A DNA stretch of 64,000 bases, from NCBI GenBank assembly GCA_945877765.1, contig CAMDWQ010000002.1:14464-78463 (forward strand), read 5' to 3'. A program made the position numbers and the translations under genes. Origin of the DNA: Candidatus Omnitrophota bacterium (GTDB lineage Bacteria > Omnitrophota > Gorgyraeia > 2-02-FULL-51-18). How positions within the stretch are numbered: position 1 is the first letter of the stretch; every line of letters starts with the position of its first letter. Below, piece after piece: positions 7,540 through 43,453 of this stretch. Under the pieces are notes generated by a model. It did not search any database, was not told the DNA's origin, and worked only from the letters and a program-made list of their open reading frames with translations.

Positions 7540-7548
7540 AGGACACCT

Positions 7549-10129: not shown

Positions 10130-10143
10130 GTGTGCTAGCCATC

Positions 10144-11412: not shown

Positions 11413-11447
11413 TTCCAAAAACAGGAATCACTTTCGAGGGAGATATT

Positions 11448-12200: not shown

Positions 12201-12206
12201 TTTCGC

Positions 12207-12707: not shown

Positions 12708-12711
12708 ACCG

Positions 12712-16650: not shown

Positions 16651-16679
16651 CGGCTGATGAGATTTCAGGGTTATTTCCT

Positions 16680-17555
16680 ATGAAAAAAGAAAAGCTGCCT
16701 CCATTTTCCGCTGAAATTATTTTACGGCCTCGGTCTGCGTGGCTTTCTTTTGATTGGAACGAATTTTTTCAGTACCAGGATCTTTTGTGGCTCCTGGTGC
16801 GACGGGACATCGTCGCCCGCTACAAGCAAACTTTTTTCGGCAGAAGCTGGTTTGTTTTGCAGCCGTTACTGATGACCATCGTTTTTACGGTTGTTTTTGG
16901 AGGCGGGGTGGGTATCTCCACCGACGGCGCGCCGCGTATTCTTTTTTATCTCTGCGGGCTGCTTCCGTGGATTTATTTTTCAGAAAGCCTTCTTTCGGCC
17001 TCCTCAGCGCTTTTATCCAACGCGGACATGTTTCGTAAAATTTATTTTCCTCGATTGATTGTACCTATTGCCACGGTGCTATCGAGGCTTTTTGGTTTCG
17101 CCGTTCATTTCGGCATATTGATCGCTGTTTATGCCTATTACAAATTTTTTACCGTTTCCGGACAGAGCCTTTTTTTTGGCCGTTTCTGGTGGCTGCTTCC
17201 TTTGGCTTTTTGCCAGACGCTGGTCTTAAGCCTGGCAATGGGTTTGTGGGTCTCTGCGCTTTCGGTCAAGCGCCGTGATCTCCAGCATGCGGCGCCATTT
17301 TTGATTCAGATATGGATGTATGTTTCGCCGGTGATTTACCCGGTTTCGCTCGTTTCCGCTCAATGGCATGCGGCGTACCGCTTGAACCCAATGACCTGGG
17401 TTATTGAATTGTACCGGCACGCCTTCCTAGGAACGCCGTCCTTGGTAATTAATGCCGGCTGGATAGTAACCTCGTTGTTGATAAGTTTTTTTCTTTTGAT
17501 AGGCGGTTTTGCGGCGTTTAACGGCATTCAGCGGACGCTGGTCGACGCTCTCTAG
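16680..17555 (+). CDS. ABC-2 type polysaccharide export permease (Wzm/KpsM/TagG family)
   Basis: Six predicted TM segments and 'RDIVARYKQTFFGRSWFVLQPLLM' ABC-2 signature. 291 aa. Confidence 0.75.
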   Translation: MKKEKLPPFSAEIILRPRSAWLSFDWNEFFQYQDLLWLLVRRDIVARYKQTFFGRSWFVLQPLLMTIVFTVVFGGGVGISTDGAPRILFYLCGLLPWIYFSESLLSASSALLSNADMFRKIYFPRLIVPIATVLSRLFGFAVHFGILIAVYAYYKFFTVSGQSLFFGRFWWLLPLAFCQTLVLSLAMGLWVSALSVKRRDLQHAAPFLIQIWMYVSPVIYPVSLVSAQWHAAYRLNPMTWVIELYRHAFLGTPSLVINAGWIVTSLLISFFLLIGGFAAFNGIQRTLVDAL

Positions 17556-17560
17556 CGCGC

Positions 17561-18724
17561 ATGAGCCTGCCAGCCCTTGAGACGCAAGCACTTTCCAAAT
17601 CATATTCCATCCTGTCGGGTGGAAAATCCGAAACTCTGTGGGCGATCAAAGACCTAACACTTTCAATCCAAAATGGCGAGGTTGTGGGAATTATCGGGCG
17701 TAATGGTGCGGGCAAATCAACGCTGTTGAAAATCCTTTCCCGAATCACCGACCCCACCTCAGGCCATGCGATTTTGCGCGGAAGAGTTTCTTCTCTTCTA
17801 GAGGTTGGTACAGGTTTTCATCCGGAGCTTAGCGGCACCGACAATGTCTATGTTAACGGCGCGATTCTGGGAATGAAGCGTGCGGAAATAAGCGCAAAAT
17901 TTAAAGCCATTTCTGAATTTGCCGAAATTGAGAAGTTTATGGACATGCCCATTAAGTTTTATTCCAGCGGCATGCTGCTGCGCCTGGCTTTTGCTGTTGC
18001 CGCCCACTTGGAACCGGAGGTTCTAATTGTGGATGAGATTCTTGCCGTGGGTGATATTGGTTTCCAAAAAAAATGTATTGAAAAAACACACGACCTAACT
18101 CAGAGCGGGCGGACGGTGGTGCTGGTCTCGCACCAGATGAACCAGATTCGAAAACTATGCACCCGTTGTTTTTGGCTGGAGGAGGGCCGTCTAAAACAAG
18201 AAGGGCCGGTAGCGGAGGTGACAAGCGCCTACGAAGAAACGGCGGTATCAGGCGCTATTTTTCGTGATGCCCAGACGCATCCGTCCGCTGTGCGCGGAAA
18301 GGCAAAATTCAGCGGATGGGAAATCAGCGAACCGGCCCCGGACCCCAAGAGAAGTTTTGCGGTGAAAGCCGAACAGCCGTTTTCGGCGGCGTTTACGGCA
18401 GAGATTTCGACCGAATTGTTCAACGTGATTCAGGGCTGCGCTCTTTACGATTCTCAAGGACAACTTCTTTGGGGCGGCGGCGCCCAGCATCTGCGATTGA
18501 CGCCCGGGCGTAAAAAATTTATTTACCGGATGCCGGCGCTTCCTTTGACGCCGGGGAACTATTATTGGCATGTCAGTCTTTACGAGGGAGAAGAAATGCT
18601 CGACAATTGGTACGCAAAGCCCGCGATGAACGTGGAGGCTTTGCCCTTGAATCATCCGATGGATGTCTGGCGTGGGATTTTAAATTTTCCTTATAATTTT
18701 AAGGTGACCGATGAGACCTCGTGA
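17561..18724 (+). CDS. Polysaccharide ABC transporter ATP-binding protein with C-terminal glycan-binding extension (Wzt-like)
   Basis: Walker A 'GRNGAGKSTLLKIL', ABC signature 'YSSGMLLRLAF', Walker B 'VLIVDEILAVGD'. About 150-aa C-terminal extension typical of Wzt. Confidence 0.8.
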   Translation: MSLPALETQALSKSYSILSGGKSETLWAIKDLTLSIQNGEVVGIIGRNGAGKSTLLKILSRITDPTSGHAILRGRVSSLLEVGTGFHPELSGTDNVYVNGAILGMKRAEISAKFKAISEFAEIEKFMDMPIKFYSSGMLLRLAFAVAAHLEPEVLIVDEILAVGDIGFQKKCIEKTHDLTQSGRTVVLVSHQMNQIRKLCTRCFWLEEGRLKQEGPVAEVTSAYEETAVSGAIFRDAQTHPSAVRGKAKFSGWEISEPAPDPKRSFAVKAEQPFSAAFTAEISTELFNVIQGCALYDSQGQLLWGGGAQHLRLTPGRKKFIYRMPALPLTPGNYYWHVSLYEGEEMLDNWYAKPAMNVEALPLNHPMDVWRGILNFPYNFKVTDETS

Positions 18725-18787
18725 ATGGATCGATCTACTTGTTCTTCGGGTAAATAATTTCATTCGTCTTAAAAGCGACGGTTTCCA

Positions 18788-19669
18788 ATGACCGAGAGTC
18801 AATACCCCTGTATTTCTGTTGTGATTCCCTCATTTAACCAGGGTCGTTTTATTGAACAAACCCTTCTGTCTGTTTTGGGGCAACAGTACCCAAACCTCGA
18901 GGTGCTGGTAATGGATGCAGGCAGCACCGACGAAACTCATGAAATTCTGAGGAAGTATCAAGATAGAATTTTTTGGCAAGCTAAGCCCGATGGCGGACAG
19001 GCAGAAGCGATCAATGAAGGGATGCGTATCAGTCGGGGAGATATTCTTTGCTGGCTAAGCTCTGATGATTTTTATTTGCCTGGCACTCTTTTGGACATCG
19101 CTCGTCGTTTCCAGGGGCATCTGAAGGAGTCTTTTTTGGTGTACGGCTCTGCACTGACTCTTTATGAGGAAAATGGCGTCATTGACGGTGGTTGGAAAAA
19201 TGCCGATGCGCTGGATTGCGTTGCGCTGACTTATGAGTGTACGGTGATTCAGCCCAGCGTTTTTTGGACTCGTGAAGCGTGGCGGCGGGTAGGACCGATC
19301 AACACCAAGTACGACCACGTGATTGACTGGGAATGGTATATCCGCGCTTCCAAAATTGCGACTTTTTGTTCTGTTGCAAAATTTTATTCAGTATTCAGGC
19401 TCCATCCGTTGCAGAAATCGAAAAAGGACGGGTTGTGCCGACGCCGGGAAATACTCGAAGTCATCGATATTTACGCGCCAGACAATTGGAAAAAAAATTA
19501 TCATTTAATTTACAGCCGCTTCGAACGCGTTCAGCGGCTACTAGTTTTTTTTAAAAATAGAAAAAGCATCTCTCTTTATTTATTGTTTTGCCTATGTTTT
19601 CCGTGGGTTGCTTTTAAAATTAAATCACGGCGGGATGTAGGGATTATCCTGGGTATGTTGGAACAATAA
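18788..19669 (+). CDS. Glycosyltransferase family 2
   Basis: 'ISVVIPSFNQGRFIEQTLLSVLGQQYPNLEVLVMDAGSTDET' GT-A N-terminus and 'WLSSDDFY' DxD-like motif. Confidence 0.8.
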   Translation: MTESQYPCISVVIPSFNQGRFIEQTLLSVLGQQYPNLEVLVMDAGSTDETHEILRKYQDRIFWQAKPDGGQAEAINEGMRISRGDILCWLSSDDFYLPGTLLDIARRFQGHLKESFLVYGSALTLYEENGVIDGGWKNADALDCVALTYECTVIQPSVFWTREAWRRVGPINTKYDHVIDWEWYIRASKIATFCSVAKFYSVFRLHPLQKSKKDGLCRRREILEVIDIYAPDNWKKNYHLIYSRFERVQRLLVFFKNRKSISLYLLFCLCFPWVAFKIKSRRDVGIILGMLEQ

Positions 19670-19687: not shown

Positions 19688-22243
19688 ATGGAAACTCTTC
19701 CGCTTATCTCCATGGTGACGCCCTCGCTGAATCAGGGCGAGTATTTGGAGCAAGCGATAGTCTCGGTCCTTTCCCAAGATTATCCTCGCATCGAATACAT
19801 AATCATCGATGGCGGCAGCACGGATGGCAGCCAAAAAATCATTGAGCGCTATCAAGAGCGTTTGAAATACTGGCGGAGTGCCCCGGATCGCGGACAGTCA
19901 CACGCTATCAATGAGGGATTTGCTCGCTCATTCGGAGAAATTTTGTGCTGGCTCAATTCGGACGACATTTTGATGCCAGGCGCTTTGCGTCGCGTGGCGG
20001 ATTATTTCACTGCCCAGACGAGCCCTGCTTGGCTTATCGGCGGTTGTGAGATTTTTGATGACGAAAAAAATAAAGTTTTCACACGTTTTGCCCACCCCGA
20101 CCTAAACCAAAAAACCTTGCTAGATTGGGATCGGTATTGTTTTGCGCAGCAATCTACTTTTTGGAATCGCTCGATGTGGGAAAAAGCAGGCCCCTTAAAC
20201 GAGTCTCTTCACTACGCGATGGATTTTGCGCTTTGGATTTCCATGATGAAGCAGGCACTGCCAATAAAATCGAATGATGTTTTTTCGCGGTATAGGCTTC
20301 ACTCTAGGGCCAAGGGAATCGCTGGGGCAGATTTATCTCGCAGGGAGCTGCTGAGCGTTATCCACGACAGCAGCACTCTCGTTGATGGGGGATCGGTATC
20401 GCAGCTGGATTCCAAGACCACCCGCTCACCGGATGTCAAAATTTACTGCTTAGCCGCATCCTGTTCAAGGCATAGTTGGGGCACGGGAATAATTTACAAC
20501 CACGCCGCTATTTTACGAAAAAATGGCTATCCTGCTTTTGTTCTGCATGAAGAGGAGCCATTTTCTTTGGAATGGCTTCACTGTGATGTTCCGGTAGTCT
20601 ATCTCAACCGCATGCAAACCTCGATCAGAAAACATGATTTATTGATTGTCCCTGAAGTGATGGCATCAGACCCTAAAATTCTTTCCATTCAATGCCGGAA
20701 AGTGGTGCATGTGCAGAATATTTTTTTTATGACGACGAATGCTCCTGATAACATTGATTTCTCGAAACTCGGATACGAGAGAGTGCTAATTGCGTCGGAG
20801 CGCATGCAAGACGCCATCGTCCGTTTTCACGGGATCCGAGGGGATATCATGCCGCCTTTTGTGGCACCCTATTTTTATCCTGCGACAACCCCCAAAAAAT
20901 CTCACGCTCGGCCCCGGCGGATCGTGATTTATCCCAAAAATGAATGCCTGGACTATCAAATCCTTTCACGGGTTTTACGCGAATATGTAGAGAATCATTG
21001 CACGGGATGGGAGATTGTCGAGCTGCGCGGAAAATCTCACACCGAGTGGGCCGACCTCTTAAGGGGATCTGCTTTTTTTGTGAGCGTGAACTGTTGTGAG
21101 GGTTTTAATGCCAGTGTTCCTGAGGCAATGGCGGCCGGCTGCATCCCGTTTTGTTATGACGCGTATGGCGGCCTGGATTATCTCAAAGATAACCACAATG
21201 CCTGCGCCTTTCCGAATAATCACATTTATCCGCTGCTGACGCGCTTAACCGATTGGATGGACCGCTATGACAAAATTCAACCACAGTTATTATCGATGCG
21301 GAAAAAAGCTTACAAAACAATGCTCGGCTATCGGATAGAAAAAACTGAGGCGGCGCTGTTGCTTTTGTTTAAAGATTTGATCCCAAAAAAAAGCGTGATT
21401 CCCGATAAAAATGAAAATGCGGAGCGCTACCAGGCGTTTATAAAAATTGCTAAAGACCGTTCCCGGGAGTACGCGACTGCAAAGCCATTTGCGCACACTG
21501 TGCTCGATAATTTTTTTCCAGAGCCGGTTCTCGAGCAAGTAATTAATGAATTTCCTTTGACTGAAGCGGCTCTGTGGCAGCGTTACCGCAACAGCCACGA
21601 GCAGAAGCTTGAGTGGTCTGCCAGCGCTCAGATGGGAGAGGTGACGGATCGGCTGCTAAAGGAGCTTTGCAGCGCCAACTTTCTATTGTTTCTAGAAAAA
21701 CTGACCGGCATTCGTGGGTTGATCCCCGATCTTAATCTTTCTGGGGCGGGGCTGCACCAGGTGGAGGCGGGTGGTTTTTTGGATATACATGTGGATTTTA
21801 ACCGACACAAAACCACCGGGTACGAACGGCGGCTGAATTTACTTTTGTATTTGAATAAAGATTGGAAAGAAGAATATGGCGGTCACCTAGAACTTTGGGA
21901 CAGCGCGCGGCAGAATTGCGTCAAAAAAATTACTCCCGTGTTTAACCGCTGTGTCATTTTTAGTACGTCGCGATTTTCTTGGCATGGTCACCCGCAGCCG
22001 CTCGCGTGCCCCCCAGACAGAACCCGCAAGTCACTCGCGCTTTATTATTACACGCGCACCCGAAATGATGGGGAATCACAGGGAGGCCACAACACCTTGT
22101 TTGGTCCGATGCCGGCACCTGTTAAGAAGAATGCTTTTTTGTGGGAGCTTCTTTGGATGATATTCTCGCCCAGACTCATGAATCAAGCCCAGCGTCTTAA
22201 GAGAAAGTGGTTGGGACCCAAAAGCCCTAAGGACGCATCGTAA
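19688..22243 (+). CDS. Multidomain glycosyltransferase: N-terminal GT2 + central GT1/GT4-like region + C-terminal 2OG-Fe(II) oxygenase (prolyl-hydroxylase-like) domain
   Basis: GT2 'ISMVTPSLNQGEYLEQAIVSVLSQDYPRIEYIIIDGGSTDGS'. Central 'EAMAAGCIPF' GT-B-like. C-terminal 'GGFLDIHVDFNRH...YGGHLELWD...RCVIFSTSRFSWHGHPQP...RKSLALYYY' carries HxD...H and a basic 2OG-binding residue. Confidence 0.7.
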   Translation: METLPLISMVTPSLNQGEYLEQAIVSVLSQDYPRIEYIIIDGGSTDGSQKIIERYQERLKYWRSAPDRGQSHAINEGFARSFGEILCWLNSDDILMPGALRRVADYFTAQTSPAWLIGGCEIFDDEKNKVFTRFAHPDLNQKTLLDWDRYCFAQQSTFWNRSMWEKAGPLNESLHYAMDFALWISMMKQALPIKSNDVFSRYRLHSRAKGIAGADLSRRELLSVIHDSSTLVDGGSVSQLDSKTTRSPDVKIYCLAASCSRHSWGTGIIYNHAAILRKNGYPAFVLHEEEPFSLEWLHCDVPVVYLNRMQTSIRKHDLLIVPEVMASDPKILSIQCRKVVHVQNIFFMTTNAPDNIDFSKLGYERVLIASERMQDAIVRFHGIRGDIMPPFVAPYFYPATTPKKSHARPRRIVIYPKNECLDYQILSRVLREYVENHCTGWEIVELRGKSHTEWADLLRGSAFFVSVNCCEGFNASVPEAMAAGCIPFCYDAYGGLDYLKDNHNACAFPNNHIYPLLTRLTDWMDRYDKIQPQLLSMRKKAYKTMLGYRIEKTEAALLLLFKDLIPKKSVIPDKNENAERYQAFIKIAKDRSREYATAKPFAHTVLDNFFPEPVLEQVINEFPLTEAALWQRYRNSHEQKLEWSASAQMGEVTDRLLKELCSANFLLFLEKLTGIRGLIPDLNLSGAGLHQVEAGGFLDIHVDFNRHKTTGYERRLNLLLYLNKDWKEEYGGHLELWDSARQNCVKKITPVFNRCVIFSTSRFSWHGHPQPLACPPDRTRKSLALYYYTRTRNDGESQGGHNTLFGPMPAPVKKNAFLWELLWMIFSPRLMNQAQRLKRKWLGPKSPKDAS

Positions 22244-24528
22244 TGGTTGATGTCATTATTCCTATTTTCAACGCCTACGAGGCGCTTGCGCGCTGTTTGG
22301 AGAGCATAAGGGCGACCAGCGCCGGAGAGGTCTCCTACCGCCTTATCCTGATTGATGACGCCAGTGAGGACCCAAGAATTTTTCCCTTTCTTGAAAAAAT
22401 GAAAGCGCCTGACGATCTGCTGTTGAAAAATGAAAACAATTTAGGTTTTGTCCAGACCGCAAACCGAGGAATGGCTGTTTCGCAGGAGCATGATGTTGTA
22501 TTGCTTAATTCGGACACCCTCGTAACAGAGGGTTGGTTAGCAGCACTCCAAAAAGCGGCTTACCAGCACCCCTCGATCGGCGGCGCTAACCCGCTGACGA
22601 ATTGCGCTTCTATTTTCTCTGTCCCCGAGCTGTCCGCATTTGCCCAGCCGACTTCATTACAAAAAATAAGCCGTTGGATAAAAAATAACCAGAAGGGATT
22701 AGCGCACGACATTCCATCAGCCGTCGGGTTTTGTTTTTATATTAAACGATGTGTTATTCGCGAGGTTGGGCTGTTTGATGAAATTTTTGGCAGGGGTTAT
22801 GGTGAAGAGAATGATTTTTGCATGAAAGCCAAGAAAAGGGGATATCGATTTGTTCTTACCAACGAAGCCTTCGTTTATCACGAAGGTCACGTTTCGATGA
22901 AGGCCGCGGGTGTTGTCCTAGAGGGACAAGAAGCTTTGCCAGCGCATCAGAACATTATTGATGAGCGTTATCCTGGATACTCAGACATGGTTCAACGTTA
23001 TGCGCACAGCGGCGTGATGCAGCAAATGCGCTCGGATGTTTTACAGGGCTTGGCTTCACAGCTGGGTTTGGGGCGAAAAAGAATTCTTTATTTTCTCCAT
23101 CACGCGGTGGACGGCTCTAGTGTCGGCGGAGCCGAATTTCATGTACGTGGTTTGGTGGAGCAGCTGAAACAAGAATATGTCTGTTATGTTGCGCGCATCG
23201 AGAACAATGTATTTTACATTGATGAGTATGTGGACGAGCTGCATCTTTCCTATGCTTACCCGCTAAGCCAACGACTGCCCTACCTGGCTTTGAGGCATCC
23301 GGCCGCGTTTCAGGCGGCTTGTGAAGTTTTGACGGCGTTCGCGATTGATCTTGTGCACATGCATTTGACGATGAACAATAATCTTGAAATTGTGCATGCC
23401 GCAAAGACTCTTGGCATCCCAGTTTTTTTATCTTTGCATGATTACTATTGTGCCAGTCCTGATTTTAATCTCTCCTACAAATTTCACGACCTGACTTGGA
23501 ATGAAAACCGAAATCCACCGCGTGGTTTTTTTTATGGTCTCTATGGCGCAAGAAATTTTAATGAAATTGCATGGCGCCAAGAGATGGCTGCTGCCTTTAG
23601 GCGGATAGATGAAGTTTTGGTCCCTAGCCATGACACGCTAAATCGTGTAAAAAAATATTTTAAGCGAACCACGAGAATTCGCGTGATTGAGCACGGTGTT
23701 CTTGACTATGAAACCAATTTGCTTTCCTTGCAAGCAGCAAGCCGGGATTCAAAAAAGTTTTCTATTTGTTTTTTGGGGTACACGCACGCCCCTCATAAGG
23801 GAGCCCAAGTGCTGCCCAAGATCATCCCAAAACTTCTGGCGCAAGGCATTGAAGTGCATCTTTTAGGTACTGACGCTGTTCATTGGAAGCGATATCCCTG
23901 GGCGCGGGAAATCCATATCCATGGCTCTTATCAACGCTCTCAAGTGATTCAAAAAATACGGACCATCAACCCATCCCTTGTCGCAATCACTTCCATCTGC
24001 CCCGAAACTTTTTCATACACCCTTAATGAGGCCTGGGCTGCTGGCGTGCCTGTGGTGGTGCCGCCTATCGGGGCTCCGGCAGAGCGAGTACAAAGGGCGG
24101 GTGGCGGGGTTGTACTGAGTGATTTCAAGCCAGAAACTTTTATCAGAGAAGTAATGGGAATGGTAAACAACAAGGCAGAATACAGCCAGCTTCAAAAGGC
24201 TGCGGAGAACATGCGCTTGAAGACAGCTGATGAAAATACTCAAGACTATCGGTATTTGTATGAGTCGTATTTTGCCAGGCACACGCAGGCGAGGCGCAGC
24301 AATTATTCCCCCGTAAACCAATTTAAACTTCAAGGGCAAAAAAAATATTGGGGTCTAAGCGCTCCTTTTGAGGGGCCCAGGTTTTTGTTTGCCATGAGCT
24401 TGTTGCATGATTTTAAGTGGATGCTTGTGCCGTTTGTTCGCCGCTCAACAGCTTGGTTCCTGGCTCTTTTTTCAAAGTCTCAAAATACGGAAATTGAGAT
24501 TTTGGACGGCGACCTGTCCGAAGAGTAA
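22243..24528 (+). CDS. Bifunctional glycosyltransferase (N-terminal GT2 + C-terminal GT1/GT4-like)
   Basis: 'VIIPIFNAYEALARCLESI...LIDDAS' GT-A N-terminus. C-terminal 'LNEAWAAGVPVVVPPIGAPAERV' GT-B EX7E-like region. 761 aa. Confidence 0.7.
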   Translation: MVDVIIPIFNAYEALARCLESIRATSAGEVSYRLILIDDASEDPRIFPFLEKMKAPDDLLLKNENNLGFVQTANRGMAVSQEHDVVLLNSDTLVTEGWLAALQKAAYQHPSIGGANPLTNCASIFSVPELSAFAQPTSLQKISRWIKNNQKGLAHDIPSAVGFCFYIKRCVIREVGLFDEIFGRGYGEENDFCMKAKKRGYRFVLTNEAFVYHEGHVSMKAAGVVLEGQEALPAHQNIIDERYPGYSDMVQRYAHSGVMQQMRSDVLQGLASQLGLGRKRILYFLHHAVDGSSVGGAEFHVRGLVEQLKQEYVCYVARIENNVFYIDEYVDELHLSYAYPLSQRLPYLALRHPAAFQAACEVLTAFAIDLVHMHLTMNNNLEIVHAAKTLGIPVFLSLHDYYCASPDFNLSYKFHDLTWNENRNPPRGFFYGLYGARNFNEIAWRQEMAAAFRRIDEVLVPSHDTLNRVKKYFKRTTRIRVIEHGVLDYETNLLSLQAASRDSKKFSICFLGYTHAPHKGAQVLPKIIPKLLAQGIEVHLLGTDAVHWKRYPWAREIHIHGSYQRSQVIQKIRTINPSLVAITSICPETFSYTLNEAWAAGVPVVVPPIGAPAERVQRAGGGVVLSDFKPETFIREVMGMVNNKAEYSQLQKAAENMRLKTADENTQDYRYLYESYFARHTQARRSNYSPVNQFKLQGQKKYWGLSAPFEGPRFLFAMSLLHDFKWMLVPFVRRSTAWFLALFSKSQNTEIEILDGDLSEE

Positions 24529-24593: not shown

Positions 24594-25484
24594 ATGGCAG
24601 AATTAAAAACAAATTGGAAAAATCTTGTCAAGATGGCAGTGCAGGGGAAACCTGCGAATCCTTTGCGTTTCGGAGAATTTGAAATGGATTGGAAGGGGCA
24701 AGGACACTCGCTGCCGAGTGTTGGGGGGATTACTTACAACGTAAAGGTGGGCGACAGCGCATTTCATTGGCGGGGTGATCATATCGAGCCGGGTGTGTCG
24801 ATGGTGTTGGATGAAGAAAAAAGATCCAGCAAGCAAAATATGGCACTGCAGTTTTTGGCGTGTGTTGGCAATGAGGCGGTGGTTGTCTCGGGTGCCGCCA
24901 AAGGCGCTAGGGGCGTAGTGGTTGGGCATCATGGCGGCGTGGAGCACATGATCGTCGATTTTGACGATAAAACTCTCAACAAACTGACGTATGATGACAA
25001 AATTTTGATTAAGGCTTTCGGGCAAGGCCTCAAGCTTCTGGACGTGCCGGAGGTTTTTGTATACAACCTAGATCCCGGAGTTTTAAAGCCTTGGGGAGTT
25101 AGGATTTCTGGGGGCAAGCTGGAAGTGCCTGTGACAATGACGGTGCCGTCCTCGCTCATGGGCTCAGGGCTTGGGCACGGCGACCCTGCGACCGGAGACT
25201 ACGACATCACCACACAGGATGCCAAAGCGGTAAAACGCTATGGGTTGGATCAGCTGCGTTTTGGAGATTTTGTGGCCATCATGGATGCGGATAATACATT
25301 TGGGCGGCATTATTTTGAGGGAGCTGTTACGATTGGGGTTGTTGCGCACTCGGATAGCTTTCTTTCAGGTCATGGGCCGGGAATTTCAACGCTATTTTCA
25401 TCGAGAACGCCTGCGATTCGTCCTAAGATTTCATATAATGCTAATCTTGCCAATGTGTTAAAAATCGGAAGATATAGGAAATAA
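24594..25484 (+). CDS. Conserved hypothetical protein
   Basis: 296-aa ORF with RBS 'GAGGGAATATG'. No confidently recognised family. Confidence 0.5.
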   Translation: MAELKTNWKNLVKMAVQGKPANPLRFGEFEMDWKGQGHSLPSVGGITYNVKVGDSAFHWRGDHIEPGVSMVLDEEKRSSKQNMALQFLACVGNEAVVVSGAAKGARGVVVGHHGGVEHMIVDFDDKTLNKLTYDDKILIKAFGQGLKLLDVPEVFVYNLDPGVLKPWGVRISGGKLEVPVTMTVPSSLMGSGLGHGDPATGDYDITTQDAKAVKRYGLDQLRFGDFVAIMDADNTFGRHYFEGAVTIGVVAHSDSFLSGHGPGISTLFSSRTPAIRPKISYNANLANVLKIGRYRK

Positions 25485-29321: not shown

Positions 29322-31003
29322 TGAGGCGAAACTGGGTTCTTCATCCGCCTGGTGATGAAGCCCATCGCCTTGCTACTGCATTAAAAATAAACCCGCTGAT
29401 TGCCGGCCTTTTGCTTCGCCGCGGCCTATCCGACCACGGTGAAATCGACCGGTTTCTAAATCCTTCCTTCGAGCACCTCCAAGACCCCTTTGTTTTTGTA
29501 GACATGGCCAAAGCGGTCGAAAGAATCCGTCAGGCGATTCGTCAAAAAGAAAAAATTTTAGTTTACGGCGACTACGATGTTGACGGCATCACCGGAAGCG
29601 CCATTTTGTATCCGGTACTAAAAAAACTTGGCGCCGATGTTGAAGTCCATATTCCACACCGGATGAATGACGGGTACGGGCTTAACCGGGATTCTTTAGA
29701 AAAACTTCTCCGGCAAAAATTCACTCTGGTCATCACGGTGGACAATGGGATCACCGGCGCTGACGAGGTGCGCTATTTAAATGAAAAAGGCGCCGACGTG
29801 ATTATCGTGGATCACCACACTCCCAAAGAGGAGGTGCCGCCGGCGTTTGCGATTGTCAGCAGTGTTGCGGGGGGCAAAGGAGACAATAATCTTGCGGCTT
29901 GCGGACTGGCTTTTAAAGTGGCGTGGGCGCTATTGGGGAGTCTTGAGCAGGCGCTTGAGTATTTGGATTTAGTGGCGGTGGGCACCGTCGCTGATTTGGC
30001 TCCCGTGCTTGGGGACAATCGGATTATTCTTAAATTAGGCCTTCCGCTTTTAGCCAAAACCAAGCGCCCCGGTTTAAGAGCGCTGATGGAAGTCGCCAAA
30101 ATAGAAAAACATTTTGTTTCTTACCGCGATATCGCGTTTGGTTTGGGGCCTCGCATCAATGCGTCGGGACGGATGGGCTCACCGCTGGCGGCGTTTAAGT
30201 TATTGACCACTGAAAATCCTCTCGAAGCCAGGAATCTGGCGCAAATTCTTGACCAGGGCAATCGTGACCGTCAACGGGTGGAAGCAGATGCTTTCGAAGA
30301 GGCAATTGGGCAGGTGGAGATGGATCCGGGTAAAGAAGAGCAAAAAATTATTGTTCTGGAGAATGCGGCTTGGCATGAAGGCGTTCTTGGAATTATTGCC
30401 GCCCGGCTTGTCGAGCGCTACCGCAAGCCCGCCATTGTGATTTCGCTAAAAGGCAATGTGGGAAAGGGATCTGGCCGATCGATTCCTTCCTTTTCTATTT
30501 ATGACGCCATGCTTCCTCATGAAACGCTCATGGTAAATTTTGGCGGCCACGCCCAAGCGTGTGGTTTAACGATACAAAAAGAAAATATTCAGGCACTTCG
30601 TCAAAGCCTAAACCGTGCGGATTACAAAATGGGCGATCTGTCGGAAGGCGTTGATTTGGCTGTGGACGGGCAGATGCTGGCGGCCGATATCGGAGCGCCT
30701 TTTTTGAAAGCGTTGGGCCAGATGACGCCCTTTGGACCGGGAAACCCAAAACCTTTGTTTGTTTCTAAGAATATGAAAGTACGCGGAGAAGTGAGAAAAC
30801 GCGGCAAAGACACGCTTCAATGCTGGATGACGGATCAAGCGGGTAAAATCACGTTGGAAGTGATAGGGTTTCGTTCGTATGGACGCTGGATGTCTGATGG
30901 GCAAGAAAAAAGCGCCGTTGATATTGTGTATCAACCGGCGCTTAAAACATTTAATGGCATTACTTCAATCCAGCTAGAGCTGGAGGACTGGCGGTCAGGC
31001 TGA
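29322..31003 (+). CDS. recJ: Single-stranded-DNA-specific exonuclease RecJ
   Basis: DHH motifs 'VYGDYDVDGITG', 'IITVDNG', 'DHH' and DHHA1 'GGGH'. Start chosen at 'MRRNWVLHP'. Confidence 0.88.
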
Positions 31004-31258
31004 GACGGCTTCGGGCTTCCAGGTACGTCTGGGGGCTTTGACGACCTTGCCAGCTTTGAGGTAGTTGGCGGCAACCAGAACTCGTTTGACGGTGCCGTTT
31101 TCAATAATCTTGACGGATTGTAAATTGGGCTTAAAACGACGGCAGGTGATGCCGGTGGTCTTAAGACCGATACCGCCGGACTTCTTGGCAATACCGCGAC
31201 GGGCAATACGTTTTCCCATTTTTGGCTTTTTTCCGGTAAAATAGCAAACTTTAGACAT
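30995..31258 (-). CDS. rpmB: 50S ribosomal protein L28
   Basis: 'MSKVCYFTGKKPKMGKRIARRGIAKKSGGIGLKTTGITCRRFKPNLQ', 87 aa. The 3' end overlaps the recJ 3' end by 9 nt. The longer annotated ORF upstream is unsupported. Confidence 0.9.
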   Translation of the reverse strand: MSKVCYFTGKKPKMGKRIARRGIAKKSGGIGLKTTGITCRRFKPNLQSVKIIENGTVKRVLVAANYLKAGKVVKAPRRTWKPEAVSA

Positions 31259-34057: not shown

Positions 34058-37000
34058 ATGAAATTAGATATGTTTATTAACCGCAACCTTTTCAAAAGAC
34101 GAAACCGAATAGGCCTCCGCCTGATATCGCTAGGTCTCGTTATGTCCTTTTTATTCCAAGACTTAAGCTATGGGGGTCAGAGAGGGCAAGACAGGCCGCT
34201 GGCACAGAAGACAATCTACCTTGTTCAGGATGCCCACTCGAATCTCTCTGGGCAGAAAAGTGTAGCTACGATTATCCAGGGCCTCGCGTTAAATGAAAAG
34301 GTTAAAACCATTTACCTGGAAGCGGGTAACGGAAATGAGTCCCTGTCGTTTCTACGCGGGGATGCTGATGCTGAGCGGCTTAAAATAGCGGCAGCTTCCT
34401 ATCTAATTTCCGGTCGCTTGCGTGGTTTTGAATTTGCCAATCTCACGTCTACCCCAAACCTAACTCTTTGGGGCGTCGAAGATATGGAGTTGTACGCCAA
34501 ATCCTTATCTGCCTACCAAATGGTTTCCAAAGATCGGGGTCGGCTGTCCGCTTATCTCGATCGATCGGTTTCGGCGGCGGAAACCCTTAAGAGCTCGGTG
34601 TACGGCGGGGCCCTTCTTTCGTTCGATCAGACAATTGCCGGTTTAAAGGTCAAAAACGACCCTGAAAGTGTAATCCATTTCATCAGTGGAGAGGCGGTAA
34701 AAGCTGGGATCGATCCCAAAAAATACCCTCACGTGCGCGCGTATGTTTCACTAAAAAAATTGGAAACGCGTATCGATTTTGAAAAAGCCAGTAAAGAGCA
34801 GGCTGAGGCGGCCGGCAGCCTCGACCCCGCAGAGATAAGCAAGTACCCGAATCTTTTACTCTACGCCCGATACGAAAAGCGCGCTGCCGTTTTACGTTCG
34901 GCGGCGTTTGTTTTGGAGGTGGACGCGCTTGAGGCACAGCTTTATGAGCGCTTTGCTGCATCGTCCGACGAAAAAAAACTTCTTCAAGCCTCGCGCGATC
35001 TTGCGCTCTTCAAAAAACTGATCGCGTTGACGCTGACGCCTGATGAATACACCGAATATCTATCGCGTGGGGAGTCGATGGAAATAGAGCGGATCACGGG
35101 TTTCCTTAACAAGAAAATAGTCGACTTGAATAAATTTTACGAAAAAGCCGTATTTCTCGAAGAGGGTTACGCGAACTCCGTCAAAATCTGCGAAGATTTT
35201 TATTCGCTAACGCTCCAAAGAGACGAGCGTTTCGTCGCTAATACGCTGACCCAGATGAAGGAGCGGGGAGAGAATAAAGCCGTTCTCATAACCGGCGGTT
35301 TCCACGCGCCGAATTTGAAGCGCTTGTTCGCCGAGCGGAACGTAAACGTCGTTTCCATCGTTCCGCGGATCGAGCAGGAAACCAACTTGAAAAATTACGA
35401 GTCGCAGCTCCTGGGTCCTTTTGCCGGGCAATTTAACAAATCTGCCCACACCGTCTCAACTCATACCAACATGCCTGTCGGCCTCCTGACACGCGACGCG
35501 CTCGGCGGCCCGGACGGCGTAGATTTCTGCGCAGCTATCCACGGCGCCCGCCTTTCCGCCAAAGATCTTCATAAAAAAATGCGTCAACGCTCTTCCTTGC
35601 TGGGTCTCCCCGGAGTAGGGCTTAAGTCAAAAATTCTGTCCGGCGCGCGGCTCGCGAAAGTCGATGCGATGAGCGTAGAAGAAAATGGAAGGGCCGCGAA
35701 AATCATCGAACGCTTTATTCGGCTCAAAGACCAGGCCTATTTATCATCGGGATTGAATGTGAGTTCCAGAAACAATTTTAGCAATCTTGTTACTCATCGA
35801 ATGAGCTCGGGGGAGAGACTATTGAGTTGGTATTTCCTGAGCAATGAGCAATGCGTTGTGTGGGAGGACCTCGAGGATTTCAAAACTAATCTTACGTTGT
35901 CTGTAAGTGTGCTGGATCACGCACTAAGATACGAATCTTCAGAGCTCGCGGAGGTTCCAAAAGATATGATTCAGCGAATTACCGGCTATCGAATGGCCGA
36001 AGGATTCGCTCTGGGCATCAATTTATCACTTTTAAATAAAGGGTTTTTGCCCGAACATAAGGCTCAAATCAAGGTCTTACGAGACAATCTTCATGCAATC
36101 GCCTACGACTGGAGCGCTTTGGTTGATTCTGTGGAAAATCGCCAAGCGACTGAAGGCGCCCGGTTGGCAGAAAGCAAGCCAGTAAGTGCCGCGCGCCTAG
36201 CCGATAATGCAATTGTGACGGGCATTGATTCGCCGTATCCTTGGGATGATTTACGTCAGGAAGATGCAAGAAAAGCGCAGTTTAAAAAACCCTATTTTCA
36301 TGATTTTTTGAAAAATTGTTTCGCTGGGCAAGAGTCTGTCAAAGCCGTTGATATCGGAACCGGTGACGGTTGGTTTGTGGATGAAATCGCCCCGATCTTT
36401 GAGACGCTGTTCCCCGGCGCTATCGTCCAGGGCGTTGAGACGGATGTTGCTTTTGGATTTGAGAATCCAAGCGCCTTTCTCGCTAAGAATGGCCCTGAGT
36501 CAATGGATTTTGTTTCCATCGTTGCCCCGGACCCCATGCGACGAACGGAGCAAATGGAGGTCGCTGATGTATTGTTGCGCCCCAATGGAGTTTTATACAT
36601 CTCGGGCAATTACATGACCAATATATGGGCAACTTCCTGGCTTCTGGAGCGCGGTTACTCCATTTCCCGCATTCCAAGTTTCAACCAAGGACCTCCTTTT
36701 AGTCCTTATGAAGGCCAAGAATTTAGCGGGATCATTTTAGCTAGCAAATCAAATATAAAAGGTTTTCAGTATTTGAAAAAAATGGGATGGGACGTCTTTG
36801 TGTATAATGGCGCCCGTTTGGCCAATATTTCTATTGTCCAGTTACCGGATATCGTACGAGTCGCCGATCGTGTTATAGATTTTATCGATCACGGGGTAGA
36901 GTTTAGCAATGATAGGGAACAGTTGCTCGCTGCATTGAAGTTGGTTGATTTTATGTCGAATAATTTGAATGAATTTGTTCCCGATACCCGTCAAAGAACC

Positions 37001-39472
37001 CAAACAATGTTCTTAATCGAAAACTCTCGAAATAAACTCTCCCAAAATGGTTATGAATTGAATCATTTGGATAACCAGCTTATGTACTCTTTTTCCCGGA
37101 CGGTCATTGCCGGTTTTAGGCTCAGAATGCATAAAGATCCCAAGCTTATCCGGTTTGATCAACAGGTTCAGCGGCCGCGCAAATTTATTATTGAAAATTT
37201 GACGGATCGTCTTCAAAAGGCCAAGCCGTTTTTTAAAGAGAAAGGTTTAGATGAGAAGGTTTCGCAGAAACTTCTTTCAATTCTGATCTGGGAACAATTT
37301 AGTACACTTCTGATGAATGTTGTGGATTTTGAGCCCATATATTCCGACGAGTATGGCGCTATCCTGAAATCTCTGATTGAGCAGGGGCTCGTCGGTGGGT
37401 GGGTGATTCAGGATATTGCCCAACTGGATCGCGAGACACCGTCCGCACGAGCTAAAAGTAACTGGTCTTATATGAAAAAGATAATAGATGTTCTGTTTGT
37501 GGGAGAGGAGCCCGCTTTACAACAACAGTTCCTAGCCGCGGTGATGGAATTCAATCAAGAGTATTCCGTGGCGGGAAATTTGGACAAGGAAACAGAGCAA
37601 GCCATTTTTCAATTAAATTTCTTGAGCTATAGGCATCTTGACCGGTTCACGCCCACCTCGTCGCTCAGCGCCGTGGGACGCAGGATTGTGCGCCATAAGC
37701 TTCTTCCTTCGGAAATCGTCGAAGCTTATGAAAAAATTCAACGAGCGATGCGGACCAAAGGGCTTCTCAGTCCCGAACTTGTCTATGATTTATCGGCCGC
37801 AGACATTTCATCCGCACTGCTTTTAACTGATGCGGAAACCTTCTATTTTAATGATGCTCTTGCGTTTGGTTTTGACGCTGATCCTAACGATCCGCGATAC
37901 GCACGCTTAAAAGAAGCGTATCTGATCGATAAATCAATCAAGGGGTATTCCAACGGTGTTCTACTGGAATCTATCGGAAGCGTTCGGGTTATTTTGGAAT
38001 GGGAGCTAGAGATGCTCGGCGCCCGCAATATTCGTATTGAGAGAAATGCTTCGAACCTGGATCGTTATGAAGTGAGTTTTGACTGGTCATACGATGGGTC
38101 TGAGGCCTTTCGTAAGCCTCGTAAAATAATTTATACCCAGGGCACCTTCGAGTCAGATGATGGGTTTGCCGCGCACGCCAATAGCTTGACAGGGGGAATG
38201 TACCTACGTAAGGCCGATATGGGGCTTTTCGCGATTTCGGATATCAAGATGCCGGTTCTGATTAGTTTTGAGAATTCAGAAAATCTTCCCGGTTACGACC
38301 GTTTTCCACTCACGGAAATGGTCGGTGCCAGCGCCTCATCCGTATATATCAGTCAGCCAGATACAAATTATGCCGATGTTAATAAAGGCTCGGTCTATGT
38401 TCGGAAGGAAAACGCTCCAAAGCATGACGTGAAAAAGGGCGCCCGGCTCGCGACAGAGGATCAGGAGCATCTTCAGCGTCTCGCTTTGGAGTTAGCGGTT
38501 TCGCGATCTGAGAGCGAGCTGGGAAATGAAATTGCCGTTTCGATTGATGATGAGAATCCGTCGTTATTTCGCGTGTCGGTGGAACGCGACGCCGAAGGCG
38601 CTTTGATAGCCGTGAAAATGTTCTTGAGAGGCGACGATCAGCCGGTTGTTGATTTGAATGGGAATATTCGCCAGAGGCTGAGAAATTTGCAGGCTACGAG
38701 CACCTCCCCCACGGATGTTGTTCGGGATGCCGTTCTTACACCGATGAACATCGCAGCTATGAGGGCGGATGCCGCGATGCCTGCAGACCTCGAGAAAGAG
38801 ACGCTAGGGGCGTATGGCTTAGCAATTCCAATGGGTAGATTCGCGGCGTGGGACAGCGTTCGGTTTGAGGCTCAGGTAAAATTGTTATCGCGAGATATAA
38901 AAAAGGCTAAGGAAAAATCCAAATACAAAAAGGCCGTTTACTATCTGGAAGGTACCGATAGTTTTAGCGAGGCACAGCGATCCATCCTTCGGGATGAAAT
39001 TCAAAAAGCCGGTCTTGGGGAAGACGTTCAGTTTAATGCCGCGGATAAATTTAACGGAATCGTTATCCGGATAGCCTCTCCCGACGATGAAGAGGCTCTC
39101 GGGGTAGAGAGCAATGCACTGATTTTCCCCGTGTCTGGAATTCAGCCCGATGCGCTACTGGGTTGGTACGAAGCGCTCCGCTCGGCGACGTTTATCGCAA
39201 CCGCATTGGGAGGCCTATACACCGAGGCGGGTTTATCGCACCAGGACATTAACGCCGCTTCAGTCCCCATCGAGGTTTTTGAACATTTCAACAGCCGAGC
39301 CGAACATCGCGTGGCGGACCGCGCCGCATTCGCCGATCTCCTGACGGGTCGCATGCATAAAACCGACCGCGCCCGTTTCAGTTTTTATCTACCCATTATC
39401 GAGCGTGTTCCCACGGATCTTTTGATCGCGGCCGCACGTCTTGCGCTCCGCACAGCGGGCGTTTCGGCGTAA
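34058..39472 (+). CDS. Giant multidomain protein (1804 aa): N-terminal TM, then TraB/Tiki/GumN-like domain, then class I SAM-methyltransferase-like segment, then about 900 aa of unknown function
   Basis: 'IYLVQDAHSNLSG' and 'VLITGGFHAPNL' resemble the paired GxxH motifs of the TraB/Tiki family. 'AVDIGTGDGWFVDEIAP...VQGVETD...LLRPNGVLYISG' resemble MTase motifs I/II/III. Single uninterrupted ORF. Confidence 0.7.
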   Translation: MKLDMFINRNLFKRRNRIGLRLISLGLVMSFLFQDLSYGGQRGQDRPLAQKTIYLVQDAHSNLSGQKSVATIIQGLALNEKVKTIYLEAGNGNESLSFLRGDADAERLKIAAASYLISGRLRGFEFANLTSTPNLTLWGVEDMELYAKSLSAYQMVSKDRGRLSAYLDRSVSAAETLKSSVYGGALLSFDQTIAGLKVKNDPESVIHFISGEAVKAGIDPKKYPHVRAYVSLKKLETRIDFEKASKEQAEAAGSLDPAEISKYPNLLLYARYEKRAAVLRSAAFVLEVDALEAQLYERFAASSDEKKLLQASRDLALFKKLIALTLTPDEYTEYLSRGESMEIERITGFLNKKIVDLNKFYEKAVFLEEGYANSVKICEDFYSLTLQRDERFVANTLTQMKERGENKAVLITGGFHAPNLKRLFAERNVNVVSIVPRIEQETNLKNYESQLLGPFAGQFNKSAHTVSTHTNMPVGLLTRDALGGPDGVDFCAAIHGARLSAKDLHKKMRQRSSLLGLPGVGLKSKILSGARLAKVDAMSVEENGRAAKIIERFIRLKDQAYLSSGLNVSSRNNFSNLVTHRMSSGERLLSWYFLSNEQCVVWEDLEDFKTNLTLSVSVLDHALRYESSELAEVPKDMIQRITGYRMAEGFALGINLSLLNKGFLPEHKAQIKVLRDNLHAIAYDWSALVDSVENRQATEGARLAESKPVSAARLADNAIVTGIDSPYPWDDLRQEDARKAQFKKPYFHDFLKNCFAGQESVKAVDIGTGDGWFVDEIAPIFETLFPGAIVQGVETDVAFGFENPSAFLAKNGPESMDFVSIVAPDPMRRTEQMEVADVLLRPNGVLYISGNYMTNIWATSWLLERGYSISRIPSFNQGPPFSPYEGQEFSGIILASKSNIKGFQYLKKMGWDVFVYNGARLANISIVQLPDIVRVADRVIDFIDHGVEFSNDREQLLAALKLVDFMSNNLNEFVPDTRQRTQTMFLIENSRNKLSQNGYELNHLDNQLMYSFSRTVIAGFRLRMHKDPKLIRFDQQVQRPRKFIIENLTDRLQKAKPFFKEKGLDEKVSQKLLSILIWEQFSTLLMNVVDFEPIYSDEYGAILKSLIEQGLVGGWVIQDIAQLDRETPSARAKSNWSYMKKIIDVLFVGEEPALQQQFLAAVMEFNQEYSVAGNLDKETEQAIFQLNFLSYRHLDRFTPTSSLSAVGRRIVRHKLLPSEIVEAYEKIQRAMRTKGLLSPELVYDLSAADISSALLLTDAETFYFNDALAFGFDADPNDPRYARLKEAYLIDKSIKGYSNGVLLESIGSVRVILEWELEMLGARNIRIERNASNLDRYEVSFDWSYDGSEAFRKPRKIIYTQGTFESDDGFAAHANSLTGGMYLRKADMGLFAISDIKMPVLISFENSENLPGYDRFPLTEMVGASASSVYISQPDTNYADVNKGSVYVRKENAPKHDVKKGARLATEDQEHLQRLALELAVSRSESELGNEIAVSIDDENPSLFRVSVERDAEGALIAVKMFLRGDDQPVVDLNGNIRQRLRNLQATSTSPTDVVRDAVLTPMNIAAMRADAAMPADLEKETLGAYGLAIPMGRFAAWDSVRFEAQVKLLSRDIKKAKEKSKYKKAVYYLEGTDSFSEAQRSILRDEIQKAGLGEDVQFNAADKFNGIVIRIASPDDEEALGVESNALIFPVSGIQPDALLGWYEALRSATFIATALGGLYTEAGLSHQDINAASVPIEVFEHFNSRAEHRVADRAAFADLLTGRMHKTDRARFSFYLPIIERVPTDLLIAAARLALRTAGVSA

Positions 39473-42255: not shown

Positions 42256-43016
42256 GCACACCAAGTATGAATTTAAAACTTCGCGTCTGGCGCCAAAAGG
42301 ATGCTTCCAAGGCCGGTAAAATTGAGGAATACGAAGCTAAAAATATTAATCCGCACATGTCTTTTTTGGAGATGCTCGATGTGGTGAATGAGGGCCTGGC
42401 CCAAAACGGCGTGGAGCCGATTGCTTTTGACAGCGATTGCCGTGAGGGAATATGCGGGATGTGTTCGCTGGTCATTAACGGCATTCCTCACGGACCGGAT
42501 CGCGGGACGGCGACCTGTCAGCTGCATATGAGAAAATTTAAGGACGGCGATACCATCACGATTGAACCGTGGCGTGCGAAGGCGTTTCCAGTGGTGAAAG
42601 ATTTGGTGACGGACCGCAGTGCTTTTGACCGCATCATTCAAGCGGGGGGATTTGTCTCAGTAAATACTGGCTGCGCTCCCGAGGCCAACGCGATCCCCAT
42701 TGGCAAGCATCTGGCGGATCCCGCGATGGATGCCGCGGCTTGTATCGGTTGCGGAGCCTGTGTCGCGGCCTGTAAAAACGCTTCGGCCATGCTTTTTGTT
42801 GCCGCCAAAGTATCTCATTTGGCCCTCTTACCTCAAGGGCAGGTAGAAAAAGCGGCGCGTGTCCAAAAAATGGTTGCTGCGATGGACCGCGAGCAATTTG
42901 GAAATTGTACCAATCAGTTTGAATGCGAAGCGGCTTGTCCCAAAGAAATCAGTGTTTCTTTTATTTCAAAAATGAACCAGGAATACTTAAAAGCATTCAA
43001 AGGAGATATCTTATGA
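42252..43016 (+). CDS. sdhB: Succinate dehydrogenase / fumarate reductase iron-sulfur subunit
   Basis: 2Fe-2S 'CREGICGMC', 4Fe-4S '[11 protein letters not shown]', 3Fe-4S '[12 protein letters not shown]'. Confidence 0.92.
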
Positions 43017-43453
43017 GCGATCTTGCGCCGGCGGCGCCGTCCGCGGGGGCCAAAAAAGTCCCCGGACCGGTTATTTTTGTGGCCATCTTGAATTTTTTGT
43101 CGGTCTCATTTTTGGGGATTATTTCGTTGGTTTGCCTGATAGCCCTCATCTTCGGCAACGTCATGGGTCTTTATGATGTTGTTTCCAAGCAAATGAGTCA
43201 GTATGCTCAGACACCCAATTATACTTATGGGGTGACGTTTATTTTTGGGGCGCTATTGGCGGCCTGCTTAACGTTTGTTCTTTTCTTTGTTTTTCTGGGG
43301 ATAGGGCTTCTGAAAAGAAAAAAAACAGCTTGGTATGTGCAGGTGGTGTTGAGCGTGCTGGGCCTTTTTGCCTTTCCGCTGGGGACGATCTTTAACGGCA
43401 TCATCTTATTCTTATTTTTCCGTCAACCAATTCGCGATTTTTTTGAGGTCTAA
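43013..43453 (+). CDS. Small membrane protein (hypothetical)
   Basis: ATGA overlap with sdhB. Four predicted TM helices. 146 aa. Confidence 0.45.

Follow-up and report, generated by a model that had tools for sequence, protein, structure and literature searches.

Recurring clade-specific pentapeptides border the cassettes of a family of modular Omnitrophota proteins

Introduction

What kind of protein is encoded by a gene of 1804 codons that stands alone among the housekeeping genes of an Omnitrophota genome? Bacteria of this phylum are ultra-small and uncultured and probably depend on a host, and their genomes devote a remarkable share of coding capacity to very long multi-enzyme proteins. 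The window analyzed here is a 64-kb stretch of contig CAMDWQ010000002.1 (assembly GCA_945877765.1) from a Candidatus Omnitrophota bacterium. It contains the gene as a single open reading frame (ORF) of 1804 amino acids (aa) plus stop, running from ATG to TAA (34058..39472, + strand; all parts of the gene described below lie on this strand). The original prediction, made from the letters of the window, saw in it an architecture without known parallel: a hydrophobic anchor, a TraB/Tiki-like domain, a methyltransferase-like segment, and a remainder lacking recognizable motifs. We report that the gene encodes a small representative of a large, undescribed family of modular Omnitrophota proteins, which are probably exported to judge from their leader sequences, and that its cargo is divided into cassettes by a recurring pentapeptide, GARLA. 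This delimiter-bounded architecture, together with the family, is more important than the initial guesses at single domains. In the literature we found no prior description of it, of the GARLA motif, or of polyprotein delimiters in Omnitrophota.

A family with constant ends and variable cargo

The gene is real. Its 1804 codons are free of frameshifts and internal stops, in agreement with the original prediction, and every string quoted there is found in the translation: IYLVQDAHSNLSG (aa 53–65), VLITGGFHAPNL (aa 409–420), AVDIGTGDGWF, VQGVETD and LLRPNGVLYISG. A 100% identical protein (P0001) with the same neighbors occurs on an independently assembled ENA contig (ERZ27280191 k141_470273, 24,980 bp). 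This excludes an artefact of assembly that joined separate genes, which had been named as a possible refutation.

Nor is the protein one of a kind. A first homology search gave 50 relatives of about 1000–3100 aa, which share with the query only aa 45–455, and later searches found more. Roughly 80 relatives, of 1–6 thousand amino acids (kaa), carry this N-terminal module (N-module), and the family spans about 1–7 kaa. All relatives named by source are Candidatus Omnitrophica/Omnitrophota. They follow a common plan of signal peptide, N-module, variable cargo and C-terminal tail, so that what is conserved across full-length relatives is the N-module and the tail plan, while the cargo varies. Pfam domains in the cargo include phosphoglucomutase (PGM), phosphoglucose isomerase (PGI), enolase, UDP-glucose pyrophosphorylase and dehydrogenase (UDPGDH), carbamoyltransferase with ROK kinase, M48, M23 and trypsin-like peptidases, ABC1 kinase, DnaJ, CheR, GT2, SNF2, and debranching enzyme with GH77, among others.

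A single genome can hold more than one such gene. The locus-tag prefix HYT89 is common to P0005 and P0022, which places at least two paralogues in one metagenome-assembled genome. At locus L002, two family genes lie in tandem (1–8199 and 9752–19048); they encode at least 2733 aa and 3099 aa, respectively, with 7 GARLA-type sites each. The label of this record, “uncultured Planctomycetia,” probably reflects a problem of binning or classification.

Pentapeptide delimiters at domain borders

The part of the protein once thought to lack motifs contains G-A-R-L-[AS] at aa 496, 529, 700, 918, and 1461, and the variant AARLA at aa 711 and 1792. Shuffling gives an expectation of 0.05 copies of G-A-R-L-[AS], compared to the 5 present. 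Delimiter 1 (GARLS, aa 496–500, 35543..35557) is preceded by a disordered stretch (aa 460–495) with a predicted local distance difference test score (pLDDT) below 50, and with delimiter 2 (GARLA, aa 529–533, 35642..35656) it brackets a 28-aa spacer (aa 501–528). Delimiter 3 (36155..36202) consists of GARLA (aa 700–704), a 6-aa spacer and the variant AARLA (aa 711–715). Delimiter 4 (GARLA) occupies aa 918–922 (36809..36823). Delimiter 5 (GARLA, aa 1461–1465, 38438..38452) sits in a linker, aa 1456–1465, that has a pLDDT of 39 and lies between two well-folded domains.

The same pattern recurs in P0002–P0027, which contain 1–11 copies of G-A-R-L-[AS] per protein vs. 0.01–0.15 expected. GARL is the top-ranked 4-mer in this GARLA group, with 77 copies in 25 of the 26 proteins; P0005 has few strict sites, along with looser G-x-R-[LM]-A variants. 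Across 111 GARLA sites, conservation is limited to the five residues themselves, and the flanks are unrelated. In P0002, P0014, P0018, P0021, and P0026, strict sites never fall within a Pfam domain; in P0021 the motif lies 16 aa ahead of the UDPGDH start. The first delimiter always follows the N-module by ~40–100 aa. Consecutive motif starts are spaced either by 18–45 aa, leaving short spacer peptides, or by 77–2200 aa, leaving room for domains, and the closely paired arrangement is common in relatives.

Among real ORFs of the window, GARLA is confined to the 1804-aa gene, and in loci L001–L003 it is nearly confined to family ORFs, with one extra match in an antisense ORF. Arginine is encoded by CGC, CGG, or CGT and leucine by CTT, CTC, TTG, or CTA across the query sites. 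These codons vary from site to site, and hence it is the peptide, not the DNA, that is under selection.

Other clades carry other motifs at the same borders

Many giant proteins that share cassettes with the query have the same N-module and tail but no GARLA. In their place, k-mer statistics revealed three further motifs, each 30- to 200-fold above shuffled expectation. RSExR occurs in 4–15 copies per protein vs. ~0.1 expected (P0063, P0065, P0080, P0048, P0058, P0061, P0068, P0045), [AG][AS]SLG in 3–12 copies per protein (P0094, P0090, P0044), and SGFGA in 7 copies in P0060. Like GARLA, these motifs have unconserved flanks, and wherever an N-module is present the first copy comes directly behind it. 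Position 2 is small in all four motif types (A/S, S, A/S, G).

Homologous cassettes end in the motif of the local clade at the same alignment position. At the C-terminal border of cassette M2 (the cassettes are described below), the query reads ...GWDVFVYN-GARLA-NISIV and P0065 reads ...GWKVIVVS-RSEVR-KINQQ. The N-terminal border of cassette M3 is VYN-GARLA-NISIVQLPDIVRVADR in the query vs. HEN-RSEAS-LLQLPEMVRIADR in P0058; delimiter 4 thus aligns with RSEVR (P0065) and with RSEAS (P0058). Delimiter 3 has RSEAR as its counterpart in P0065. At the C-terminal border of subdomain M3b, ...VRKENAPKHDVKK-GARLA in the query stands against ...LKKTSPH-RSELR, and across the family M3b is followed by GARLA (query, P0069), RSEAR (P0059), RSELR (P0068), or RHELR (P0061). 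In a neighbor-joining tree of 66 N-modules, GARLA proteins form one large and one small clade, and the other motifs belong to other clades. What the family displays, then, is a recurring and clade-specific motif at domain borders, in accessible linkers, on the same chain as a protease-like domain, a combination expected of a polyprotein.

The N-module has a TIKI-type fold and a conserved active site

The N-module (aa 45–460, 34190..35437) was modeled with AlphaFold2 from a 30-sequence alignment (pLDDT 87, predicted template modeling score 0.80). The predicted structure has the parallel beta-sheet of the TIKI/TraB/EreA/ChaN fold, as a small alpha/beta core interrupted by a helical insert of ~260 residues. 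Its fold matches include HopBA1 (9.3), a TraB family protein (9.1), EreC (8.7), ChaN (8.5), and RRSP (8.4).

Alignment places the likely active site within this core. The first catalytic motif, Q57-D58-A59-H60 (34226..34237), corresponds to the E-x-H of RRSP (PMC6254334). An invariant glutamate, E88 (34319..34321), follows 28 residues past H60, the same His-Glu spacing found in Bcr135 (H85/E113) and RRSP (H3902/E3930), the latter a proven sequence-specific endopeptidase of TIKI fold with a 2His/2Glu site (PMC6254334). Toward the C-terminal end of the module lie an invariant arginine, R388 (35219..35221), and the motif G413-G414-F415-H416 (35294..35305), in which both glycines and the histidine are invariant. 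H60, E88, and H416 are unchanged in all 66 N-modules; position 58 is D or E in 64 of them, and the position of E141 is acidic throughout. The catalytic His-Glu pair and the second histidine in a C-terminal GxxH are therefore present, with equivalence to Bcr135 and RRSP residues judged by sequence position rather than by structural superposition. Of the paired GxxH motifs first proposed, the second (GGFH) holds, and the first reads Q-D-A-H instead.

Sequence models tell a different story from the fold. Pfam and NCBIfam searches of the whole protein and of five segments, at E-values up to 10, gave no match to TraB_PrgY_gumN, Erythro_esteras, or Cofac_haem_bdg, and no usable match of any kind; the nearest were DREV (E 0.24, over motif I of the methyltransferase-like segment) and DUF5682 (E 0.12). 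The N-module had no match among PDB sequences (phmmer), and a profile of 30 N-modules against PDB retrieved no family member, only helical noise such as centrin. The proposed Tiki/TraB-like domain is thus supported because fold and active-site pattern agree, although no sequence model recognizes it.

Two proteins, P0053 (530 aa, on a 328-kb contig) and P0054 (524 aa), are stand-alone N-modules with a signal peptide, lacking both cargo and the family tail. Such proteins might work in trans or serve another function.

The leader resembles a Sec signal peptide

The hydrophobic leader noted at the N-terminus is present; its description as an anchor does not hold, as it resembles a cleavable Sec signal peptide. 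From its sequence, its hydropathy, and a comparison of 28 N-termini, aa 1–39 (34058..34174) form a probable signal peptide with the n-region KRRNR and the h-region LISLGLVMSFLF. In relatives the n-region is positive, the h-region short, and the c-region AxA-like, and in a hydropathy scan no 19-residue window reaches a Kyte–Doolittle mean of 1.6. Export through the Sec system is probable from inspection of these leaders. The public gene call for P0001 begins at M29 (34142), a start that leaves out the charged n-region along with most of the hydrophobic leader. We favor the start at M1 (34058), because relatives keep a charged and hydrophobic leader; neither ATG is preceded by a clear Shine–Dalgarno sequence.

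Within the query's clade the leader also keeps a motif, F-L-x-[EQ]-[EQD]-x-x-[FWY]-[AG], followed by A/N-P/E, which is seen in the N-termini of P0002–P0027 and P0069 and reads FLFQDLSYG in the query (aa 31–39, 34148–34174). It likely precedes the point of signal-peptide cleavage. Acidic or amide residues are unusual inside the h- or c-region of a signal peptide, and the motif may be a dedicated sorting signal.

Strongly hydrophobic segments resembling transmembrane helices occur within the cassettes of relatives, namely in P0021 (aa 1917–2005), P0023 (aa 612–778), and many parts of P0065 and P0094. Cassette chains would therefore seem to mix soluble and membrane modules.

Cassettes and the C-module

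The delimiters of the query separate three cassettes and a C-terminal module. An exhaustive HMMER search with aa 529–1460 returned 38 proteins. Cassette M1 (aa 534–699, 35657..36154) has no homologue beyond the identical P0001. Like the first half of M3, it is an orphan, apart from a match of M3 to P0058.

Cassette M2 (aa 716–917, 36203..36808) is the segment originally likened to a methyltransferase dependent on S-adenosylmethionine (SAM), and it may be a divergent class I member. Motif I, the acidic residue that ends beta-2, and motifs II and III are present in order, and VDIGTGDG, GVE, MDFVSIV(APDP), and LLRPNGVLYISG are conserved in 9 homologues. A 10-sequence profile against PDB gave 3i9f (“type 11 methyltransferase,” E 0.0039) and Coq5 (E 0.021), with 8 of 12 weak matches being SAM-methyltransferases, and the homologue P0072 matches Methyltransf_23 at E 0.0018. 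The query itself matches no Pfam methyltransferase, and M2 has no match among PDB sequences (phmmer). The classical motifs and weak profile matches are suggestive of a SAM-methyltransferase. Copies of M2 are also found in several giants and as proteins of their own, about 250 aa long.

Cassette M3 (aa 923–1460, 36824..38437) has a counterpart in the 5898-aa P0058, where aa 2751–3280 are 44% identical to aa 923–1453 of the query. Its second part, M3b (aa 1205–1455, 37670..38422), was included in a second structure model covering aa 1176–1804, and it is predicted to be an alpha/beta subdomain with a methyltransferase-like Rossmann fold. The signature of this widespread, uncharacterized domain family is Y..SG.DISTALL.TDA...F.D.LPF ... 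WELEALGA. The SAM-binding loop GxGxG is absent: the consensus at this point is Y-x-x-S-G-x-D-I-S, and the query reads LSAADIS. Neither a profile of M3b against PDB and Pfam nor NCBIfam gave a match, and Foldseek found no significant match to the model. M3b recurs in many giants, including 3–4 times in P0070 and P0071, and exists as stand-alone proteins of 260–360 aa that have no Pfam match (P0066, P0076, P0079, P0083, P0085, P0089). We also considered whether M2 and M3b are duplicates, which hhalign rejected (probability 0.1).

The C-module (aa 1466–1804, 38453..39469) was defined by comparison with relatives and by a moderate-confidence alpha/beta model. It is common to P0002, P0003, P0004, and P0006, and its last third also occurs in P0012, P0015, and P0025; it has no conserved residues of catalytic appearance. 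The tail (39413..39469) comprises a helix, aa 1786–1799, in which AARLA occupies aa 1792–1796, and ends in ...GVSA. A terminal helix with [QST]-[AS]-[AV] behind it is found in almost every full-length relative, and in the sub-clade of the query the helix carries (G/A)AR(L/M)(A/V/T) ~13 residues from the C-terminus.

What the delimiters may do

The simplest account of an invariant pentapeptide in linkers at module borders, switched between clades and always accompanied by a hydrolase-fold domain, is proteolytic processing. We consider it an even proposition that the protein is a Sec-exported polyprotein processed at its delimiters. By analogy with RRSP, the N-module is probably the likeliest protease, and processing specifically by the N-module falls a little short of even. 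The chain would be exported N-terminus first; the N-module, once folded, would serve as an endopeptidase specific for the sequence of the GARLA delimiters and cut either its own chain or that of another molecule. M1, the SAM-methyltransferase-like M2, M3 with its predicted methyltransferase-like domain, and the C-module would in this way be set free as individual proteins. The scissile bond could possibly lie after motif position 2, or between leucine and alanine (GARL/A) as in MARTX toxins. GARLA would thereby provide the first concrete candidate cut sites for giant proteins of Omnitrophota.

Several observations weigh against this account. Cleavage is what we infer from the architecture. Export is read from the leader by inspection, and much of the family cargo (PGI, enolase, DnaJ, an HTH domain, SNF2) is typically cytoplasmic, which sits awkwardly with it. 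The N-module matches none of the sequence models of TraB, EreA, or ChaN, and its fold alone is no proof of protease activity, because the TIKI superfamily also includes esterases (EreA/EreC), haem binders (ChaN), and inactive members (PMT). Cargo-free N-module proteins of about 525 aa exist (P0053 and P0054, above). The sister N-modules P0080 and P0090 differ in their motif (RSExR and ASSLG, respectively), and no delimiter was detected in the P0028–P0035 clade, though N-module and tail are present.

The chain might instead stay whole, as an envelope- or membrane-associated multi-enzyme scaffold in which the pentapeptides serve as docking, recognition, or hinge elements. A survey treats “multi-enzyme metabolic clusters” of this phylum as single membrane-associated polypeptides (10.64898/2026.06.07.730766), and AARLA or GARLA inside the predicted tail helix implies that the motif can occupy structured sequence. 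Passive linkers, however, do not normally keep five invariant residues amid drifting surroundings, the motifs of different clades are chemically unrelated, which makes a shared modification unlikely, and the close pairs of delimiters resemble the spacer peptides of processed polyproteins; we regard such a scaffold as unlikely, if a serious competitor. A polyprotein could also be cut by a separately encoded enzyme, such as a periplasmic serine protease or a C-terminal processing protease, with the N-module acting as an esterase, binding haem or another ligand like ChaN, or serving quality control. The stand-alone N-modules and the differing motifs of sister N-modules fit this arrangement, as do the M48, M23, and trypsin-like proteases found in some cargo and the conserved small-residue C-terminus, which resembles the substrates of tail-specific proteases. 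Yet the N-module is the sole globular domain that always accompanies the delimiters, stands immediately before the first of them, and keeps its full catalytic set in 66 of 66 sequences, and in the window no protease gene adjoins the gene. A separate protease is accordingly, in our estimate, also rather improbable.

Two further explanations fare worse. If the initial view of a one-off were right, the gene would encode a bifunctional Tiki-like protease and methyltransferase with an unrelated tail, or would be several genes mis-assembled. Both domain guesses do have some support, but the intact and identical ORF in an independent assembly and the dozens of relatives with the same N-module, cassettes, and tail plan make this very hard to maintain. 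That the motif acts at the level of DNA, as recombination junctions that shuffle cassettes between paralogues with the peptide incidental, is the most improbable of all. M2 and M3 have moved between family members into unrelated contexts, and GGCGCC starts 4 of the 5 query sites; against this, flanking conservation is absent in both nucleotides and peptide, and the amino acids of the motif are strictly kept across proteins of 30–40% identity. With arginine and leucine codons varying across sites, we rejected a DNA repeat or recombination signal.

Beyond processing at the delimiters, a wider and more speculative proposal can be made, which we hold only tentatively. The family may represent an export strategy in which one signal peptide serves many enzymes, and a TIKI endopeptidase, co-diversified with GARLA, RSExR, ASSLG, and SGFGA, frees them outside the cytoplasm. 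Their site of action might be the periplasm, the surface of the cell, or the interior of attached cells of a host or prey, where debranching enzyme, GH77, PGM, PGI, enolase, and PPDK could tap host carbon. The same delimiters might then mark the cut points of the Omnitrophota giants of 10–150 kaa.

Genomic setting

As originally described, the gene lies between rsmD and sdhC, among + strand housekeeping genes. Its upstream neighbors are secDF, recJ, recG, and rsmD (PF03602, 33419–33970, +); downstream, sdhC, sdhA, and sdhB (39656 onward, +) precede a gene resembling mqnA and one for an AMP-binding ligase. Farther away are glycosyltransferases, queuosine genes, and an ABC-2/Wzt exporter. The base composition is unremarkable, the window contains no tRNA or Rfam element, and a promoter and terminator scan gave matches at shuffled expectation.

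Some other genes of the window deserve mention. Upstream, an 851-aa GT2 with a C-terminal 2OG-Fe(II) oxygenase domain (19688–22243) is followed by a 761-aa fused GT2 + GT4 + GT1 protein (22243–24528); both adjoin the ABC-2/Wzt-type exporter (16680–18724), which suggests a polysaccharide locus. A DUF4438 protein (24594–25484) separates the glycosyltransferase genes from tgt. A small ORF at 30931–31206 is the sole gene on the opposite (–) strand in its stretch, and its label as ribosomal protein L28 comes from a matching gene on locus L003. Finally, an ORF of 146–176 aa without a Pfam match (42923–43453) lies ahead of the mqnA-like gene, in overlap with the end of sdhB.

Comparison with known systems

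The nearest known proteins in taxonomic terms are the Omnitrophota giants described as “Archaeovorins” and as “multi-enzyme metabolic clusters.” They come from the same phylum, have prevalent N-terminal signal peptides, and share cargo with the present family (phosphoglucomutase, ROK kinase, methyltransferases, radical SAM, glycosyltransferases). The two studies deal with proteins above 10–30 kaa (10.1101/2023.11.21.568195; 10.64898/2026.06.07.730766), compared to about 1–7 kaa here. The query falls far below the 10-kaa cut-off of that literature; with those proteins it shares an Omnitrophota origin and a leader, and members of its family carry many unrelated enzyme domains in one chain. The survey found a signal peptide or transmembrane helices in 94% of long Omnitrophota proteins (10.64898/2026.06.07.730766), a figure with which the export proposed here agrees. 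Authors working on the giants suspect cleavage, and point to C39 or S8 peptidase domains, with cut points lacking (10.1101/2023.11.21.568195). Neither preprint reports cut sites, a recurring delimiter, or a Tiki/TraB-like N-terminal domain.

The delimiters make the question of giant-protein cleavage directly testable: they predict exact neo-termini to be sought in existing metaproteomes, divide the chains into pieces of a size that structure prediction can handle, and nominate a specific enzyme and its active-site residues. If the processing account is true, the family would be a bacterial, chromosomal counterpart of viral polyprotein processing, built on a Tiki/TraB fold, and would offer a set of naturally orthogonal protease-site pairs.

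At the level of single domains, the family departs from its nearest structural kin. M2 and M3b differ from class I SAM-methyltransferases in that no Pfam methyltransferase model matches the query and M3b lacks GxGxG. Compared to the TIKI/TraB/EreA/ChaN/RRSP superfamily, the N-module has no detectable sequence similarity to members in Pfam, NCBIfam, or PDB, has Q-D-A-H where the superfamily has a GxxH first motif, splits its core with the long helical insert, and heads multi-kilodalton chains of cassettes behind a signal peptide.

In terms of mechanism, MARTX toxins and viral polyproteins would be the closest analogues. MARTX toxins, which are exported, are large as well, and they too keep their ends conserved while the modules in between can be swapped; a built-in protease cuts the linkers between modules, and one MARTX effector, RRSP, has the TIKI fold. 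Cleavage in MARTX occurs after leucine and before a small residue, which GARL/A would fit. They differ in having RTX/glycine-rich repeats and a C80 cysteine protease, for which no Pfam match was found here. The putative protease of the present family is N-terminal and TIKI-like, its delimiters are strict clade-specific pentapeptides, its cargo consists mostly of metabolic enzymes, and its hosts are Omnitrophota rather than Vibrio-type pathogens. Viral polyproteins differ in setting, as the gene described here is a chromosomal bacterial gene among housekeeping genes, with a signal peptide and no viral hallmark genes. What they have in common with the family is a short invariant motif at domain borders in disordered linkers, a motif that varies by lineage together with a protease-like domain, and spacer peptides between paired sites.

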